NCBI GenBank assembly: GCA_047456295.1
Contig: CP179887.1
Span: 239,159-303,158 of the forward strand
Source: Candidatus Nealsonbacteria bacterium
Lineage (GTDB): Bacteria > Patescibacteriota > Minisyncoccia > Minisyncoccales > JANBVM01
Direction: 5' to 3'
Length of the DNA: 64,000 bases
The position numbers and the translations under genes were made by a program. Positions 8,934 to 17,753 of this stretch are shown piece after piece. The notes below the pieces were generated by a model. The model made no database searches, was not told where the DNA came from, and was given only the letters and a program-made list of their open reading frames with translations. Numbering within the stretch: the stretch's first letter is position 1; every line of letters begins with the position of its first letter.

Positions 8934-9059
8934 GGCGCTTAAATGGCAACTACCTACTTTTGCGGGAAAACCCACTATCATCGGCCTTGGATTATTTCAC
9001 TTCTGTGTTCGAAATGGGAACAGGTGGAGCAAATCCAGTATAGTCGCCATTAAAACGCC
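8934..9059 (-). rRNA. rrf: 5S rRNA (ends approximate; includes the extended terminal helix)
   Basis: The reverse complement contains GGCGACTATACTGG...CCACCTGTTCCCATTTCGAACACAGAAGTGAAA...GCCGATGATAGTGGG...AGTAGGTAGTTGCC. The terminal helix pairs GGCGTTTTAATGGCGAC with GTTGCCATTTAAGCGCC. Confidence 0.85.
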
Positions 9060-9126
9060 CTTTTTATGAGAATTCAAATTTCAAATCTTAAACATCAAAA
9101 ATTAAACTTTTGTTTCGCAAAATTTT

Positions 9127-12100
9127 GGAGGGCAAGAAATTATGATTTATTAGTACTGCTCGGCTTAATGGGTTGCCCCACTTACACCTGCAGCCTATCA
9201 ACCTCATCATCTTTGAGGAATCTATGAGTCCTAATCTTGGGGTGGGCTTCGTGCTTAGATGCTTTCAGCGCTTATCCTTGCCCAACGTGGCTACCCAGCG
9301 ATGCTCCTGGCGGAACAACTGGTACACCAGAGGTTGGTTCAATCTGGTCCTCTCGTACTAAGATCAACTCCCCTCAAGACTCAACGCCTGCGGTAGATAG
9401 AGACCGAACTGTCTTACGACGTTCTGAACCCAGCTCACGAACCACTTTAACGGGCGAACAGACCGACCCTTGGAAGCTTCTCCGCCTCCAGGATGTGATG
9501 AGCCGACATCGAGGTGCCGAACCGGGCCGTTGATATGGACTCGCGGGCCCGACTAGCCTGTTATCCCCGGGGTAACTTTTAGCTGATGATCTCCGGCGTT
9601 CCTACGAACCACCGTCGGTTCACTAAGTTCTGGTTTCCCAACTGCTCGCATCATTATACTCGCAGTAAAGCCGGCATATGGCTTTGCCCGACACGTACGA
9701 TTTCCATCCGTACTTAGCCGACCTTTAAACGCCTCCGTTACCTTTTAGGAGGCAAGTGCCCCACTTAAACTGCCCACCAGACACTGTTTCTGTCTCAAGG
9801 ACAGATTAGAATCAAGACTTTGAAAGGAAGGTGTTTCATTGACGACTCCATCTGACCCGAAAGTCAGACTTCAAAGTCTACCTTCTACGCTACGCATCCA
9901 AAATCAAAACCCAATATCTAGATACAGTAAAGCTCCCGGGGTCTTTTCGTCTAGCCGCAGGTAGAAGGCATCTTCACCCTCATTGTATTTTCACCGGGCT
10001 CCTCGTTGAGACAGTTCTCCAGTCGTTACGCCTTTCATGCGGGTCGGAACTTACCCGACAAGGGATTACGCTACTTTAACACGGTTATAGTTACCGCGGA
10101 CGTTCACCGGAAGCTTAACCCGCTCAGCTGTCCTTCGATAAACTCAGGACAACCGGCAAGCTTAACGTTCCGGCACTGGTCAGGCGTCAGCCCCTATACT
10201 TCCTTTTACAAGTTAAGCAGGGACCTGTGTTTTAGATAAACAGTCGCCAGAGAAACGTTTGCTGCGACCGCCTTATTGGCGGTAGGCCATCTCCCGAAGT
10301 TACAACCACTTTTTTGCCGAGTTCCTTAACGAGGTTTCACCCGTTCACCTTGGTACATTTACACCAGCCCACCTGTGTTGGTTTGCGGTACGGACCCAAC
10401 CTTTTTAACTCTAAAGGGGTTTTTCCAGGCAGTCTGCTCCTCCAAGTTCACCTGTCCAAAGACAGATTTCCCTCTTATTCTTGAATTTTAAAAAAATCCT
10501 TAAATAAGAGACGAGAATCCAATAACTCGCTTGGAATACTAAACTGCGTCACCCTTTAAAAAAAAGGTTGAGGGGTCGGAATATTTACCGACTGTCCATC
10601 AGGTACGCCTTTCGGCTTTCCCTTAGGTCCGCCTAACCCTTGGTTGATTGTCATTGCCAAGGAAACCTTGGGCTTTCGGTGTCAGGGGATTTAACCCTGA
10701 TTGCGGTTACTCATACCAACATTCTCACTTCTCAGCGCTCCACCAAACCTCACGGTTTGACTTCACTGCCCTGAGAACGCTCCCCTACCCACTCCATCTG
10801 AAGATGGAGTGCCTTATCTTCGGTACTGAACTTGAGTCCCGTGAATTTTCGGCGCAGAACTCCTTAGTTAGTAAGCTGTTACGCACTTTTTAAAGGATAG
10901 CTGCTTCTGAGCTTACCTCCTAACTATCTATGGAATTCCACCTCCTTTATCACTTAGTTCAGATTTAGGGACCTTAGATTAAGATCTGGGCTGTTTCCCT
11001 CTTGAGCCTGGACATTATCGCCCAGGTTCTTACTCCGAGGATTACAAAAAAGGAATTCGGAGTTTGGTAGGAGTATCTAGCTTGCGCCACAATATTCCTT
11101 CCAGTGCTCTACCTCCTCTTTCTAATTCCTCAGGCTAGCCCCAAAGCTATTTCGGGGAGAACCAGCTATTCCCAAGCTCGATTAGCGTTTCACCTCTTGC
11201 CACAGCTCATCCCAGGATTTTGCACGATCCACGGGTTCGGGCCTCCTCCCGCCTTTCGGCGGGATTCACCCTGGCCATGGCAAGCTCGCTTGGCTTCGGG
11301 TCTCGCACACCCTCTCCTCCTGAAAACAGGAGACGCGCTATTAACACTCGATTTCTCTTTGCCTTCGTCCCATAAGGACTTAGACCAAGAGGGTGCACGA
11401 ACTCGTTGGTGCCTGCTCCAAAAGGTACACCGTCATCTGTCTAAAAGACAGACTCCGACTTTTTGTCAGCAGATGGTTTCAGGTTCTATTTCACCGGGAT
11501 CACCTCCCTACTTTTCACCTTTCCCTCACGGTACTGGTTCACTATTGGTGAGATTGAGTATTTAGCCTTGGCTAGTAGTATAGCCTGCTTCCCGCAGGGA
11601 TTTCTTTCCCGGGCGGTACTCAAGTATAGATATTCAGGACATACGATGGTTTTCGCCTACTGGGCTGTTACCGTCTTTGGCGTCCCTTTCCAGGGTACTT
11701 TGACTAACCAAATCGTATTTTGTTAAACCCTGCCCAAAGCTTGCGCCCTGGGACATATCTAACTTACAACTGCTATCTTAATTGATAGCTCTGGGCTCCT
11801 CCCTCTTCGCTCGCCGCTACTAAGGGAATGTTCGCTCCGCAACGCTCTAAACAATAAACTGTAAACAGGAAGTTTAAAATCTATTGTCTAAGGTTTAAAC
11901 TGAATGTGCGAAGCAGATTTTTTTCTTTTCCTCCGCTTACTGAGATGTTTCACTTCAGCGGGTATGCTGTTCCGTTAAAAACGGAACTGATTTGCTGTTA
12001 AGGCAAATCGGGTTTCCCCATTCGGAAATCCCCGGATCAAAGGTTGGTAGACACCTCCCCGAGGCTTATCGCAGTCACCCCACGTCCTTCATCGCCTCAA

Positions 12101-12144
12101 TCTCCCGAGGCATTCACCATCTGCCATAGGTTTTTCTGCCCTCC
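9127..12144 (-). rRNA. rrl: 23S rRNA
   Basis: The reverse complement starts GGAGGGCAGAAAAACCTATGGCAGATGGTGAATGCCTCGGG..GGCGATGAAGGACGTGG and ends ..GAGCAGTACTAATAAATCATAATTTCTTGCCCTCC. The 5' and 3' ends pair with each other. Conserved blocks run throughout (GTTTCACTTCAGCGGG region, sarcin-ricin and PTC regions). Confidence 0.95.
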
Positions 12145-12284
12145 AAAATTCTGCAAAGCAAAATTTAAATTTTTGACTAACGAATATTGACCTTTTCGTT
12201 GAATTTCTTTTTCCTTATTAAAATGTAAGGTTCTTTCCTGTCCTATCTTTTACAGATACTTTAATTAAAGCATCTTATTAAATC

Positions 12285-12306
12285 AAAAAACCGCTTCCAA
12301 AAGCGG
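12285..12306 (-). terminator. intrinsic terminator-like hairpin between the membrane-protein gene and 23S
   Basis: The minus strand reads CCGCTT-TTGG-AAGCGG followed by TTTTTTG. Confidence 0.55.
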
Positions 12307-15972: not shown

Positions 15973-15998
15973 ATTGTTGAATTTGACAAGCCAACATC

Positions 15999-16022
15999 AA
16001 AAAACCTGTAAAAAACTACAGG
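15999..16022 (-). terminator. intrinsic terminator directly downstream of the 16S rRNA
   Basis: The minus strand reads CCTGTA-gttttt-TACAGG followed by TTTTTTG. Confidence 0.6.
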
Positions 16023-16151
16023 CTGCTTGATTGAACATTATGTTTCGGTTTCTCAGAGTTGTCCTGGATCAAGATTTTAGGCTCCTTGATCAACACCTTT
16101 AGAGTTAAAACCCAAATTTACGATTTCAACCCTAGTCGACAACTCAAAATA

Positions 16152-17657
16152 AAATGTGGTGATCCACGGACAGCTTCCGCTACCCGTGCCTTGTTACGAC
16201 TTCGCCCTTCTCACTGAATCTAGCTTGGGTCCGCCTCAAGGGCGGAACTTCAGCTATTCCCAGCTCGCTTGGCGTGACGGGCGGTGAGTACAAGGCCCAG
16301 GGACGTATTCATCGCCACATCGCTGATTGGCGATTACTAGCGATTCCAGCTTCATGAGGTCGGGTTTCAGACCTCAATCCGAACTAAGGCTAGATTTGGT
16401 GGGATTAGCTCCGGATTTCTCCTTGGCAACCCATTGTGCTAGCCATTGTATCATGTGTGCAGCCCAGGACATCAAAGGGCCATGCTGATTTGGCGTCATC
16501 CTCACCTTCCTCCGTATTGTCTACGGCAGTCCCCTATGACACTTGAAACATAGGGCAAGGGTTGCGCAGGTTTCCCCATTTAAGGGAGCATCTCAAGACA
16601 CCTGCTGACGACAACCATGCAGCACCTGAGCTAGTGTCCTTGTGGGTAGATCTTCTTTTCAGAAGACTTTCACTAGCATGTCAAGCCCTGGTAAGGTTCC
16701 TCGTTTGTTATCGAATTAAGCCACATGATCCACCGCTTGTGTGAGCCCCCGTCTATTCCTTTGAGTTTTAGTCTTGCGACCGTACTTCCCAGGCGGGACA
16801 CTTAACGCGTTAGCTTCGTCACCTGTAGGGTCGACACTACAGATAACCAGTGTCCATCGTTTACAGCGTGGACTACAAGGGTATCTAATCCTTTTTGCTA
16901 CCCACGCTTTCGTCCCTCAGCGTCAGGGTCGCCCCAGTTGAATGCCTTCGCTTTTGGTGTTCCGCTCGATATCAACGGATTTCACCCCTACACCGAGCGT
17001 TCCTTCAACCTCTAACGCCCTCTAGTTTGGCAGTTTCTAACGCCCTCCTTAAGTTAAGCTCAAGGTATTTAACGTTAGACTTACCAAACCGCCTACGGAC
17101 CCTTTACGCCCAATAAATCCGGATAACGCTTGGGGATTCTGTATTACCGCGGCTGCTGGCACAGAATTTGCATCCCCTTATTCTTGGAGTACCGTCACCT
17201 AAAAGGTTCTTCCTCCATAAAAGCAGTTTACAACCCGAAGGCCTTCTTCCTGCACGCGGCGTCGCTGGTTCAGGGTTTCCCCCATTGACCAATATTCTCG
17301 ACTGCTGCCTCCCGTAGGAGTATGGCCCGTGTCTCAGTGCCATTGTTGGCGGTCAAGCTCTCACCCCGCCTACCCGTCATAGCCTTGGTAGGCCATTACC
17401 CTACCAACTAGCTGATAAGCCGCAGGTCATTCGTTGAGCGGTTTTTTGCAAAACCCTTTACTGGTAGAAGATTGTTCAACTACCAGACCATCAGAGATTA
17501 GCCCAGATTTCTCTGGGTTGTCTCTGTCTCAACGGTATGTTACCCACGTGTTACTAACCCGTTCGCCACTAGTCATCTAAAAGATGACCCGTTCGACTTG
17601 CATGCCTTATCCACGCCGCCAGCGTTCATCCTGGACCAGGATCAAATCCTCAGAATA
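16152..17657 (-). rRNA. rrs: 16S rRNA
   Basis: The reverse complement starts ..GAGGATTTGATCCTGGTCCAGGATGAACGCTGGCGGCGTG. It contains GTGCCAGCAGCCGCGGTAATAC and GCTTAATTCGATAACAAACGAGGAACCTTACC, and ends AAGTCGTAACAAGGCACGGGTAGCGGAAGCTGTCCGTGGATCACCACATTT. No large insertion is present. Confidence 0.95.
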
Positions 17658-17724
17658 AAAAGAATTTACAGGACAACTCTAAAAAACCGATATTTAATTT
17701 TAACGTACATCTTACTGCGCTTCT

Positions 17725-17753
17725 ATTTTACTCGTTTAAAAGAATCCTGTCAA
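17725..17753 (-). promoter_or_regulatory. candidate sigma-70 promoter of the 16S rRNA gene (TTGACA-N17-TAAAAT)
   Basis: The minus strand reads TTGACAggattcttttaaacgagTAAAAT, about 70 nt upstream of the 16S 5' end. Confidence 0.6.

Follow-up and report, generated by a model that had tools for sequence, protein, structure and literature searches.

The split rRNA locus of a Nealsonbacteria-type bacterium: probable separate transcription units and an attenuator-like 23S leader

How is an rRNA locus transcribed when protein-coding genes separate its members while the ancestral order is kept, and how old is such an arrangement? A Candidatus Nealsonbacteria-type bacterium (Patescibacteria, Parcubacteria group) raises the question: its only rRNA locus lies in a 64,000-nucleotide stretch of DNA that we call the window. 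On the minus strand the locus reads 16S, YbaK-like deacylase, methyltransferase, tRNA-Ile, tRNA-Ala, M20 peptidase, MscS-like membrane protein, 23S and 5S. An earlier note had described unlinked rRNA genes in ancestral order, with the first two protein genes between 16S and tRNA-Ile and the other two between tRNA-Ala and 23S. Rfam, ARAGORN and Pfam confirm this description, and the gap between 16S and 23S is 4,011 nt. The genes are as follows.

18728..18801, minus strand: tRNA-Thr(TGT) (ARAGORN), conserved neighbour upstream of the 16S unit
16152..17657, minus strand: 16S rRNA (Rfam RF00177, 1434.6 bits, full length)
15445..15951, minus strand: YbaK/ProX-superfamily aminoacyl-tRNA deacylase, 168 aa (Pfam PF04073, 61.9 bits)
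14873..15445, minus strand: class I SAM-dependent methyltransferase (Pfam Methyltransf_11/23/25)
14810..14882, minus strand: tRNA-Ile(GAT) (Rfam, ARAGORN)
14721..14795, minus strand: tRNA-Ala(TGC) (Rfam, ARAGORN)
13305..14722, minus strand: strain-specific cargo segment with M20, its edges an imperfect direct repeat TCCAC(CA)CTTTT
13367-14593, minus strand: M20/ArgE-DapE family deacylase CDS (Pfam, NCBIfam)
12487..13173, minus strand: MscS-like membrane protein, 228 aa (PF05552; MscS N-terminal TM-helix repeat only)
9129..12140, minus strand: 23S rRNA (Rfam RF02541, 2415.8 bits, full length)
8941..9051, minus strand: 5S rRNA (Rfam RF00001)
7995..8861, minus strand: MreC, conserved downstream neighbour of 5S

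The YbaK-like protein falls below the TIGR00011 equivalog cut-off, the methyltransferase reaches no NCBIfam equivalog, and the MscS-like protein scores 77 bits against NF033912, below the cut-off of 100, its best 120 homologues all being at least 69% identical. The YbaK reading frame is open back to 15972, and its true start is probably the ATG at 15951, which gives 168 aa as in homologues.

We think it likely that the ancestral 16S-tRNAIle-tRNAAla-23S-5S operon has here been split up into adjacent, co-oriented, separately promoted units, with an attenuator-like leader before the 23S. The candidate signals are as follows.

17725..17753, minus strand: 16S promoter TTGACA-17-TAAAAT (11/12, the best promoter match in a 12-kb region)
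17669..17690, minus strand: 5' strand of the RNase III-type 16S processing stem, pairing with 16045-16066
16045..16066, minus strand: 3' strand of the 16S processing stem, pairing with 17669-17690
16003..16024, minus strand: terminator-like hairpin 3' of 16S, a 9-bp stem followed by TTTTGATGTT (terminator scan)
15961..15989, minus strand: promoter-like TTGTCA-17-TACAAT before YbaK (10/12)
13216-13187, minus strand: promoter-like ATTACA-18-TATAAT of the MscS-like gene (motif match)
12392..12419, minus strand: 23S-5S promoter TTGACA-16-(TG)TAACAT (promoter scan and conservation)
12133..12176, minus strand: 5' strand of the 23S processing stem, pairing with 9095-9139 (inverted repeat by blastn)

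Counts of such signals in the 12-kb region are by themselves no higher than in shuffled sequence (26 promoters versus 24, and 15 terminators versus 12.2), and only their recurrence at homologous positions in relatives gives them significance. Unit boundaries drawn from these conserved signals support at least three transcription units. The first would be 16S alone, with a promoter, a flanking processing stem and a terminator of its own. In relatives, every one of 14 intervals from tRNA-Thr to 16S contains a promoter of at least 11/12, a class of match with a background density of 0.073 per kb per strand, and in one relative (L045) the same TTGACA-17-TAAAAT motif precedes 16S at equal distance. 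The flanking stem comprises 22 bp at -38.6 kcal/mol (RNAduplex), and the motif GTTTTTTAGAGTTG..CCG is kept before 16S in relatives. A hairpin with a T-run occurs in 25 of 40 spacers between 16S and YbaK in relatives, where background density predicts about 0.2 per spacer. The promoter and terminator that the earlier note gave to 16S thus hold up as conserved sequence signals, and the separate RNase III-type stems that it proposed to look for were found around both 16S and 23S. Many related loci likewise carry tRNA-Thr(TGT) upstream of 16S, and in the window a terminator hairpin follows this tRNA (18722-18699; terminator scan). We also observed that the 16S 3' tail in the window reads GGATCACCACATTTT and lacks the CCUCC anti-Shine-Dalgarno sequence, and comparison of the 3' end across loci indicates that this element has been lost from the 16S of the clade.

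The second unit would be a leaderless mRNA that encodes the YbaK-like deacylase and the methyltransferase and runs unbroken into tRNA-Ile and tRNA-Ala. With its end 9 nt before ATG 15951, the -10 box upstream of YbaK would leave this mRNA little or no leader, and promoters of at least 11/12 directly precede the YbaK start codon, at the matching position, in 15 of 40 relatives. The methyltransferase start overlaps the YbaK stop, and its own TAG stop lies inside tRNA-Ile in a 10-nt overlap that recurs in three related loci (L031, L032 and L034). In the close strain L116, YbaK is missing through a precise in-frame replacement, and the YbaK promoter and ATG directly start the methyltransferase. 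A third unit would consist of a variable cargo slot by the tRNA-Ala 3' end, occupied here by M20, for which we found no convincing promoter, followed by the MscS-like gene, which is conserved as the next gene upstream of the 23S unit.

The fourth unit would be 23S-5S, which has a strong promoter of its own and a leader, as well as a processing stem and a T-run at its end. TTGACA-16/17-TAAAAT, mostly with an extended -10 TG, is found in 26 of 27 related spacers between the MscS-like gene and 23S; at the 11/12 threshold, 23 of 26 such intervals contain a promoter, and 25 of 26 contain terminator hairpins. The stem flanking 23S is predicted at -55.2 kcal/mol (RNAduplex). An extended helix (AAAAAGGGCG/CGCCTTTTTT) closes the 5S, and its T-run may serve as the terminator of the unit. 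Beyond it MreC has its own promoter, TTTACT-18-TATAAT at 8897-8868, ending 6 nt before ATG 8861; 5S is followed by MreC in relatives too, the L116 MreC being called as 288 aa.

The terminator-like hairpin that the earlier note placed before the 23S (12285-12306) is present, but it is not simply the terminator of an upstream gene. Its position, about 80-100 nt downstream of the conserved 23S promoter and directly behind a small ORF that is also conserved, makes it a component of the 23S leader, which has the following elements.

12334..12381, minus strand: small ORF encoding MEKKYWKEKIYIKSG and a stop, its ATG 10 nt past the -10 box (leaderless or nearly so)
12285..12347, minus strand: alternative-structure region, segments 1-3 (RNAfold)
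12221..12238, minus strand: boxA-like motif GGAAAGAACCTTACATTT, retained 3' of the hairpin across 23S leaders

In-frame ORFs of 12-27 codons that end in (K/R/G)-S-G-stop are present in 18 of 19 distinct related leaders. The frame is kept despite five lengths (12, 13, 15, 18 and 27 codons) and third codon positions are the most variable, two features that suggest that the ORF is translated. Its 3' end (segment 1, AAAAGCGGTT) is able to pair with segment 2 (CCGCTTTT), which can alternatively pair with segment 3 (GGAAGCGG) followed by U6. The resulting hairpin, CCGCTTTTGGAAGCGG plus TTTTTT at 12306-12285, comprises a stem-loop at 12306-12291 and a T-run at 12290-12285. RNAfold predicts pairing of segments 1 and 2, before segment 3 is made, in all 19 leaders, and the z-scores of this antiterminator duplex range from -2.5 to -6.8 against shuffles. 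In the two helices, 96% and 98% of the cells pair, and one compensatory change in the terminator, C-G to U-A, keeps a G-U pair in the antiterminator. The spacing from promoter to hairpin is about 107 nt in most loci, and in the 1.3 Mb searched the hairpin motif is essentially confined to 23S leaders. The element matches no Rfam family, and we found no description of such a mini-gene with a terminator switch in Rfam or the searchable literature.

This geometry appears to be that of a leader-peptide attenuator. When the end of the ORF is free of ribosomes, the antiterminator helix would form first and RNA polymerase would continue into 23S, and a ribosome at the stop codon would release the terminator to form. 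Both the attenuator function and its sign are predictions from structure and conservation; if they are right, the switch may tie rRNA synthesis to translation. A credible rival, which we consider somewhat improbable, is that the leader does not sense translation at all. The ORF and its terminator could together make up an independent micro-protein gene, or the hairpin could act purely as RNA, like boxB/tL, assisting rRNA folding or Nus-factor loading, with the frame incidental. The C-terminal half of the peptide (I-L-N-K-G-S-G) is conserved as amino acids with synonymous changes, which a pure occupancy sensor would not need, and no run of regulatory codons is present in the ORF. Covariation is also weak in both helices: their cores are almost invariant, the antiterminator score does not exceed its shuffle control, and a single evolutionary event may account for all four compensatory cells in the terminator. 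Moreover, rrn leaders of other bacteria carry hairpins followed by boxA. Against the rival, the repeat GAAGCGG(TT), 7-10 nt long, has one copy at the end of the ORF and another in the 3' half of the terminator, and both copies are complementary to one segment, a hallmark of mutually exclusive structures. Retention of the frame across the five lengths also speaks for a translation-sensing attenuator. Since related spacers contain no second conserved promoter between the hairpin and 23S, 23S synthesis must pass the terminator. Finally, 16S leaders of relatives show an analogous arrangement of small ORF, terminator and boxA-like motif in a different sequence.

It is unlikely, in our view, that the locus is instead one long operon, in which antitermination-modified polymerase would cross the hairpins from the 16S promoter to 5S, protein genes would be translated from processed internal fragments of a single precursor, and internal promoters would be only supplementary, like the E. 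coli riRNA promoter for spacer tRNAs. There is precedent in E. coli rrn operons, which have internal promoters serving their spacer tRNAs (PMC5179076). In the window all elements share one orientation and the ancestral order, and no gene on the other strand interrupts them. The 16S terminator is modest (3 G-C pairs in its stem), the YbaK promoter reaches only 10/12 and is strong in just the 15 relatives counted above, and read-through from 16S into YbaK is possible. BoxA-like motifs exist as well; in relatives they read GGAAAG(A/T)(A/T)C(A/T)TTGAAAA, occur in 16S leaders too, and may resemble the Gram-positive rrn boxA. Here, however, the motif lies after the leader terminator rather than before it. 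Strong promoters and hairpin/T-run terminators are conserved exactly at unit borders and are absent within units (none in 64 YbaK-methyltransferase, 41 methyltransferase-tRNA-Ile, 47 tRNA-Ile-tRNA-Ala or 10 23S-5S intervals), and each rRNA has a self-contained processing stem. In several relatives (L031/L034, L046, L056, L077 and L078) genes on the opposite strand interrupt either the stretch from 16S to YbaK or that from tRNA-Ala to the MscS-like gene, which makes one continuous precursor implausible in them, and 16S and 23S can be as far apart as 11.7 kb.

The earlier note had read the locus as an unusually legible intermediate, with genes inserted on both sides of the spacer tRNAs. In such a reading four genes would have entered an rRNA spacer recently, in a transition towards full dispersal of the rRNA genes. 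The comparison across related genomes that the note called for contradicts this reading, which we regard as very improbable. We surveyed 80 metagenome loci, took proportions from the loci informative for each feature, and gauged taxonomic breadth by 16S identity (79.5-91.6% to the window) and a few source-given names. 16S lies upstream of YbaK in 51 of 68 informative loci, tRNA-Ile lies downstream of YbaK in 43 of 46, both tRNAs are present in 40 of 46, and 23S lies less than 900 nt from the MscS-like gene in 20 of 21, with 16S-23S distances of 2.45-11.7 kb. The backbone kept is tRNA-Thr/16S/YbaK/methyltransferase/tRNA-Ile/tRNA-Ala/[variable slot]/MscS-like/23S/5S/MreC. It is shared by the closed Ca. 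Nealsonbacteria genomes CP179889.1 and CP179890.1 and scaffold L032, and found also in independent assemblies (L021, L022 and L027); three YbaK homologues (L091, L103 and L104) lie away from rRNA genes. No locus spanning both 16S and 23S shows further dispersal.

We observed directly how the genes are ordered, that this order is conserved and that cargo is gained or lost between strains. M20 is absent from L116, whose rRNA is 99.2-99.5% identical and whose junctions we read, and from all 80 metagenome loci, and its closest homologues (60-78% identity) sit in non-rRNA contexts. The two ORFs that precede the 16S promoter in the window are likewise missing from L116, and the cargo in two slots of the locus differs widely among relatives. 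A recent gain or loss beside the tRNA-Ala 3' end, the variability of both slots and the absence of YbaK from one close strain are what a transitional state has in its favour. Judged by this comparison, M20 is the only recent cargo among the four inter-rRNA protein genes, so that insertion stands for it alone; the YbaK-like, methyltransferase and MscS-like genes are conserved residents. Because these three are retained in relatives down to about 80% 16S identity, closed genomes and both tRNAs included, the split is an old, stable and derived state, and on this evidence the layout is a conserved derived architecture of the Nealsonbacteria-type clade.

The misassembly that the earlier note named as a way to refute it, with chimeric joins through conserved rRNA or tRNA sequences, has next to no chance of being correct: such genes are classic break or join points, and the two Logan contigs of run DRR463593 that match the window at 100% (12077-14857 and 14846-16188) overlap by only 12 nt, inside tRNA-Ile, but a contig from another run (SRR14803101) carries identical joins at 99.07% identity over 11800-14795, and the joins recur in a JGI contig that covers the locus from end to end, in the two closed genomes and in dozens of syntenic metagenome contigs. 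Base composition is likewise uniform across the locus, the GC content of the inter-rRNA genes (0.32-0.40) being like that of the flanks.

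All elements of the rRNA locus in the window lie on the minus strand, and annotation with Rfam, ARAGORN, and ORF and Pfam searches upheld both the gene order and the split that the earlier note had read from the sequence alone. The features, listed in the direction of transcription, are:

17690-17669 with 16066-16045, minus strand, perfect 22-bp stem flanking 16S
16152-17657, minus strand, 16S rRNA, full length (Rfam)
15445-15972, minus strand, tRNA_edit/YbaK-superfamily protein (ORF and Pfam)
14873-15445, minus strand, class I SAM methyltransferase (ORF and Pfam)
14810-14882, minus strand, tRNA-Ile(GAT) (ARAGORN)
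14721-14795, minus strand, tRNA-Ala(TGC) (ARAGORN)
13367-14593, minus strand, M20 (ArgE/DapE family) deacylase (ORF and Pfam)
12487-13173, minus strand, 228-aa MscS-like membrane protein (ORF and Pfam)
12381-12334, minus strand, leader ORF of the 23S gene, MEKKYWKEKIYIKSG followed by a stop codon
12176-12133 with 9139-9095, minus strand, inverted repeat of ~45 nt flanking 23S
9129-12140, minus strand, 23S rRNA, full length (Rfam)
8941-9051, minus strand, 5S rRNA (Rfam)

The order of 16S, spacer tRNAs, 23S and 5S on one strand is that of a canonical rrn operon. The spacer of such an operon is short, holding tRNA genes only and typically measuring ~0.4 kb, with 1.5 kb as the limit used by Brewer et al. 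(10.1101/705046), and no internal promoter and terminator pair interrupts it. The window locus departs from both rules: 4,011 nt separate 16S from 23S (16152 to 12140), four protein-coding genes lie inside this gap, and conserved signals are found between 16S and YbaK and between the MscS-like gene and 23S. The separate RNase III-type stems that the earlier note had suggested looking for are present as one long flanking stem for each of 16S and 23S, and the promoter and terminator it had assigned to 16S were also found. The rRNA genes of the window are free of insertions.

The joins on which the split depends, which the earlier note had allowed might be chimeric, are carried by independent contigs, and an assembly artefact is thereby ruled out. 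Two Logan contigs, built by an independent assembler from run DRR463593, are 100% identical to the window over 12077-14857 and 14846-16188; a second run, SRR14803101, supplies a contig that is 99.07% identical to 11800-14795, from tRNA-Ala through the M20 and MscS-like genes into 23S; a 23.9-kb JGI contig of a near-identical strain (L116) is collinear with window 4860-26194; and the GC content of the protein-coding parts is uniform. Assemblers fragment these loci into characteristic pieces of ~1.3 kb and ~2.8 kb.

The layout extends well beyond these strains. The YbaK-like and MscS-like proteins have their nearest named homologues in Candidatus Nealsonbacteria (Parcubacteria group, Patescibacteria), and two closed Nealsonbacteria genomes (CP179889.1 and CP179890.1) and a 79-kb scaffold keep the gene order of the window, which in them runs 16S, YbaK, methyltransferase, tRNA-Ile, tRNA-Ala, variable gene(s), MscS-like, 23S, 5S, MreC, MreD and PBP2. 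Scanning metagenomes with a YbaK alignment yielded a further 80 loci, annotated using the window rRNAs, the window proteins and ARAGORN, and nearly all of them have this backbone in common. Upstream of YbaK, 16S is found in 51 of the 68 loci having enough sequence on that side; downstream, tRNA-Ile follows in 43/46 loci and both tRNA-Ile and tRNA-Ala in 40/46; and the MscS-like gene lies less than 900 nt from 23S in 20 of 21. Frequent outer neighbours are tRNA-Thr(TGT) upstream and MreC downstream. The distance from 16S to 23S in relatives ranges from 2.45 kb, for the bare backbone, up to 11.7 kb. Because the backbone is kept in metagenome loci whose 16S genes are 79.5-91.6% identical to that of the window, and in the closed genomes (86.9%), the split rRNA layout is an old, stable and conserved state and not a transitional one. 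Thus, the earlier note was right that these are real, unlinked and separately signalled units, but its evolutionary reading of the locus as an unusually legible intermediate is not borne out by the ~80 loci and the closed genomes.

The division into transcription units is best seen by comparing loci. Promoters in related loci were scored at a threshold of at least 11/12 overall and at least 5/6 in the -35 box, and terminators as a hairpin plus T-run, against background densities of 0.073 promoters and 0.36 terminators per kb per strand. In the window alone, consensus matches of either kind are not commoner than in shuffled sequence, so it is the comparison between loci that gives them weight. 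The intervals between neighbouring genes gave the following counts:

tRNA-Thr to 16S: 14 loci, strong promoter in 14, terminator in 12
16S to YbaK: 40 loci, strong promoter in 15, terminator in 25
YbaK to methyltransferase: 64 loci, strong promoter in 0, terminator in 0
methyltransferase to tRNA-Ile: 41 loci, strong promoter in 0, terminator in 0
tRNA-Ile to tRNA-Ala: 47 loci, strong promoter in 0, terminator in 0
MscS-like to 23S: 26 loci, strong promoter in 23, terminator in 25
23S to 5S: 10 loci, strong promoter in 0, terminator in 0

With a looser pattern, TTGACA-16/17-TAAAAT occurs in 26/27 spacers between the MscS-like gene and 23S, mostly with an extended -10 TG. The YbaK stop codon overlaps the methyltransferase start, and the methyltransferase ORF, which has no stop of its own, reads 10 nt into the 5' end of tRNA-Ile before it reaches a TAG (window 14873-14882), an overlap that is also present in three relatives (L031, L032 and L034). 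These overlaps therefore leave no room for signals between the genes, and the position of the methyltransferase stop means that RNase P cutting of a shared transcript would strip the mRNA of its stop codon. The most economical reading is that the locus is probably transcribed as four blocks: 16S; YbaK, methyltransferase, tRNA-Ile and tRNA-Ala; the cargo genes and the MscS-like gene; and 23S with 5S. One obligatory precursor is argued against by the opposite-strand genes that lie within the locus of several relatives. The 16S terminator is only modest, and transcription may continue past it into YbaK. No good promoter was found for the M20 gene. Within the four-block arrangement, the predicted joining of a trans-editing deacylase and a methyltransferase with the spacer tRNAs in one transcript appears to be new.

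The backbone has two variable slots, the first separating 16S from YbaK and the second separating tRNA-Ala from the MscS-like gene. Their contents in relatives, often encoded on the opposite strand, include a CYTH protein, a nucleoside deoxyribosyltransferase, zinc-ribbon proteins and glycosyltransferase-like membrane proteins. The M20 gene is absent from all 80 metagenome loci. None of its homologues at 60-78% identity adjoins an rRNA gene or tRNA-Ala, all being in ordinary protein-coding contexts, and in the genome collection the protein has homologues of only ~50-57%, found mainly in Chloroflexi MAGs and away from any rRNA-like sequence. For the same reason M20 was the wrong anchor for a locus search and YbaK the right one.

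Exchange is visible even between near-identical strains. The L116 contig is 99.5% identical to the window over the 16S region and 99.2% over 23S, and the differences are clean indels. It lacks the 1.42-kb M20 segment (window ~13305-14722), which in the window is flanked by an imperfect direct repeat, TCCAC(CA)CTTTT, at the 3' end of tRNA-Ala. In L116, YbaK has been precisely deleted (window 15448-15948), and the same promoter and ATG context now start the methyltransferase; the exactness of the loss thus preserved the reading frame and the leaderless arrangement. Also missing is a pair of small ORFs that in the window stand past the tRNA-Thr terminator and upstream of the 16S promoter, in a segment (17762-18676) flanked by an ATATAT(A/T)(C/G)ACAG-like direct repeat: a 125-aa ORF with no family match (18109-18486) and a DUF3850/ASCH protein (17830-18090). 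Their absence from L116 led us to reject both as members of the conserved locus. The earlier note had counted four inserted genes; YbaK, the methyltransferase and the MscS-like gene are instead long-term residents, with YbaK dispensable in one strain, and M20 alone is recent. Two hot slots that exchange cargo even between strains appear to be a new observation.

Insertions are found within the rRNA genes of this group as well. The 23S gene of L116 carries 368 extra nt (L116 13666-14032, corresponding to window 9507/9508) at a domain V site between CACCTCGAT and GTCGGCTC, and that of L034 holds a group I intron (RF00028). Among relatives, insertions occur in the 23S genes of L031, L034 and L111 and in the 16S genes of L038, L045 and L081, with 23S spans up to 6.3 kb, 16S spans up to 3 kb and LAGLIDADG-type ORFs after some 16S genes; some seeming gaps after 16S are in fact rRNA insertions with LAGLIDADG endonucleases.

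The names of two residents are to be read at the level of superfamily. For the YbaK-like protein, membership goes no further than the tRNA_edit superfamily (PF04073, 61.9 against a cut-off of 25.5), and assignment as the Cys-tRNAPro deacylase equivalog was rejected on its scores for TIGR00011 (48.4 vs 153.25) and PRK10670 (19.7 vs 243). Similarly, the MscS-like protein has only the TM-helix repeats of PF05552 and is not a full MscS mechanosensitive channel, the cytoplasmic domain being missing and the NF033912 cut-off missed (77 vs 100). Its sequence conservation greatly exceeds that of the neighbouring YbaK-like protein (50-70%): the top 120 database matches are at least 69% identical, and 3,731 matches were obtained at E<=1e-15. 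A conserved membrane protein adjoining 23S appears to be new.

That an rRNA operon can be split was already known. Brewer et al. (bioRxiv 10.1101/705046; ISME J 2020) define rRNA genes as unlinked when more than 1,500 bp lie between 16S and 23S, name Patescibacteria as a clade whose rRNA genes are exclusively unlinked, and report a mean 16S-23S distance of ~410 kb in their complete-genome set. By this definition the window locus is unlinked (4,011 nt), as are its relatives (2.45-11.7 kb), and it shares with the Brewer set both the distance class and the phylogenetic conservation of the trait, the unlinked state being conserved in the closed Nealsonbacteria genomes and ~80 contigs. In contrast to that mean, however, the Nealsonbacteria genes are still adjacent (2.5-12 kb) and co-oriented. 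Moreover, Brewer et al. score distance only and describe no spacer tRNAs, resident genes, cargo slots, unit signals or 23S leader. Our literature search, which covered open-access papers only, found no description of this gene cassette, and the fixed anatomy of the split rRNA locus, conserved in ultra-small bacteria of one deep lineage, appears not to have been described before.

The closest likeness is to the rrs-rrl region of Borrelia, where a several-kb gap (4,617 bp in B. garinii PBi) likewise retains tRNA-Ala, tRNA-Ile and protein-coding genes (PMC2688082). The resident genes are unrelated: Borrelia has a mag glycosylase and a cof-type hydrolase in place of the YbaK-like, methyltransferase, M20 and MscS-like genes, and Pfam assigned the window residents to tRNA_edit, Methyltransf, Peptidase_M20 and MS_channel_1st_1, with no mag or cof-type hydrolase homologue. 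Borrelia also differs in its tRNA arrangement and is not reported to carry a leader ORF or an attenuator. In B. burgdorferi, 23S-5S is duplicated. Rickettsia, Thermus and Helicobacter transcribe 16S apart from a 23S-5S unit, with processing signals for each rRNA, but their units are dispersed round the chromosome and the spacer tRNAs have been lost or moved, whereas the window locus keeps order, orientation and tRNAs. E. coli can express its spacer tRNAs independently through the riRNA promoter (PMC5179076), an internal one situated within 16S in rrn operons that are otherwise intact; here, by contrast, the tRNAs would form the 3' end of a YbaK-methyltransferase transcript starting past the 16S terminator. 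The Nealsonbacteria locus thus offers a system for asking why rRNA co-transcription can be lost while gene order stays, and long-read amplicon work spanning 16S-ITS-23S must allow for spacers of 2.5-12 kb in this clade.

The leader of the 23S gene is, if its function is confirmed, the surprising part of the locus: a candidate translation-coupled attenuator before an rRNA gene. The earlier note had placed a terminator-like hairpin at 12285-12306 ahead of 23S; the hairpin is there (12306-12291, with a T-run at 12290-12285), but it sits downstream of a conserved 23S promoter (12419-12392). A hairpin and T-run were found in every one of the 27 MscS-like to 23S spacers scanned, window included (25/26 in the interval counts), at a near constant ~107 nt from the -35 box in most loci, and a search of 1.3 Mb on both strands found the motif essentially confined to 23S leaders. 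Between promoter and hairpin, 18/19 distinct 23S leaders have a short ORF of 12-27 codons that starts with an ATG placed 4-13 nt beyond the -10 box and closes with (K/R/G)-S-G-stop, the common peptide being M-R-K-x-x-x-I-L-N-K-G-S-G-stop. This frame is kept through five different lengths, and variability is highest at third codon positions and at the first position of a Leu codon.

The last codons of the leader ORF, (G)GAAGCGGTTAA, repeat the terminator 3' half (GAAGCGG, then U's) and are complementary to its 5' half, (AA)CCGCTTC. In RNAfold predictions that stop short of the 3' half, as if it had yet to be transcribed, the end of the ORF pairs with the 5' half of the terminator around a variable hairpin in 19/19 leaders, and the same pairing appears in most full-length folds. 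The energies of this antiterminator duplex are 2.5-6.8 SD better than those of shuffles. Both helices are compatible with 96-98% of alignment cells (96% for the antiterminator), and most pairs never vary. Covariation in the terminator amounts to one compensatory pair type in four sequences, a C-G to U-A change for which the matching antiterminator pair is G-U, and the covariation test on the antiterminator did not exceed shuffles; these statistics are weak because the helix core is nearly invariant. A permissive Rfam search of 12100-12500 returned chance-level matches only (Yfr10, 23.2 vs a gathering score of 43; Phe_leader, 17.9 vs 55). A second promoter between hairpin and 23S was considered and rejected: a conserved TTGATT follows the U-run, but no conserved -10 box goes with it. 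Beyond the hairpin lie a conserved GGAAAG(A/T)(A/T)C(A/T)TTGAAAA motif, found in 23S leaders and also in the 16S leaders of relatives, and then the processing stem. We take this motif to be a candidate boxA-like element from its resemblance to the boxA of Gram-positive rrn operons. In two relatives (L032 3789-3860 and L036 3245), another promoter lies ~140 nt upstream of the usual one, with its own long hairpin before it and a mini-ORF after it (MTIKIIFRGEGGGG and a stop codon, ending GGCGGCGGTTAA); the arrangement resembles a leader module that was copied in tandem and then diverged.

The geometry of the 23S leader suggests the hypothesis of a ribosome-mediated attenuator, with both function and sign hypothetical. 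The antiterminator strand would be AAAAGCGGTT in the leader ORF, with CCGCTTTT as its pairing partner. With no ribosome on the leader, the antiterminator is predicted to form by default, giving read-through into 23S; a ribosome at the leader ORF stop codon would block it, so that the terminator is favoured and polymerase stops before 23S. As a leaderless mini-ORF at the extreme 5' end of an rRNA transcript, the leader would be translated by finished ribosomes, and rRNA synthesis might thereby be coupled in cis to translational capacity. The arrangement shares with trpL, hisL and pheL a short ORF close to the promoter, an intrinsic terminator ahead of the gene under control and a competing helix that overlaps the ORF. 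Unlike those leaders, it would regulate rRNA and not a biosynthetic operon, it has three pairing segments in place of four, its ORF is apparently leaderless and carries no run of codons for a sensed amino acid, and its predicted default in the absence of translation is read-through. Open-access papers, to which our literature search was confined, yielded no leader-peptide attenuator before rRNA genes. We put forward only tentatively, as a possibility we would not yet favour, that large-subunit rRNA transcription in this clade is gated by a ribosome-sensing attenuator, with 16S likewise gated in many relatives. If true, this would be the first leader-peptide control of rRNA transcription and would amount to feedback regulation by ribosomes in a direct and testable form, serving as a built-in stand-in for feedback or stringent control where regulatory equipment is minimal.

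The 16S leaders of many relatives have a comparable element, made up of a promoter, a 5' GAAGAGAC box, a Lys/Cys-rich mini-ORF, a terminator and the boxA-like motif. We observed it in L065, L072, L078, L083, L089, L097, L098, L108 and L110-L115. The mini-ORFs, for example MAKKKKKKCGCE and MKKKKKKKCGCCCCC, each followed by a stop codon, contain Lys runs, and the 5' box is complementary to the terminator (AATCAGGGAGTCTCTTCCTGATTTTTT) over its loop and 3' half (GTCTCTTC). Such Lys/Cys-rich ORFs might couple transcription to tRNA charging instead. The window and L045 are without this element, and their 16S leaders measure only ~105 nt.

Translation initiation in these bacteria may be unusual too. 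The 3' tail of the window 16S (16152-16165) reads GGATCACCACATTTT and lacks the CCUCC anti-Shine-Dalgarno core, as do most related loci (L031-L113), with GGATCACTACATTTT, GGATCATTTAATT or similar tails; a few retain TCCTTT. Shine-Dalgarno-like 4-mers are not enriched upstream of window ORFs (5/42, vs 11/42 in a control region). No paper on anti-Shine-Dalgarno loss in CPR bacteria turned up among the open-access papers searched. The -10 boxes stand only 6-13 nt before the ATG of YbaK (15961-15951), MreC (8873-8861), the MscS-like gene (13192-13173) and the leader ORF (12397-12381), and several other window genes have the same short arrangement. This spacing suggests that leaderless or near-leaderless mRNAs are widespread, which is consistent with the missing anti-Shine-Dalgarno, and the two features together would give a coherent picture of non-canonical initiation. 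The MreC start deserves a minor correction: the longest ORF (7995-8981) overlaps the 5S gene by ~40 nt, and the true start is almost certainly the ATG at 8861 (288 aa, as in L116), for which a separate promoter is present at 8897-8868.
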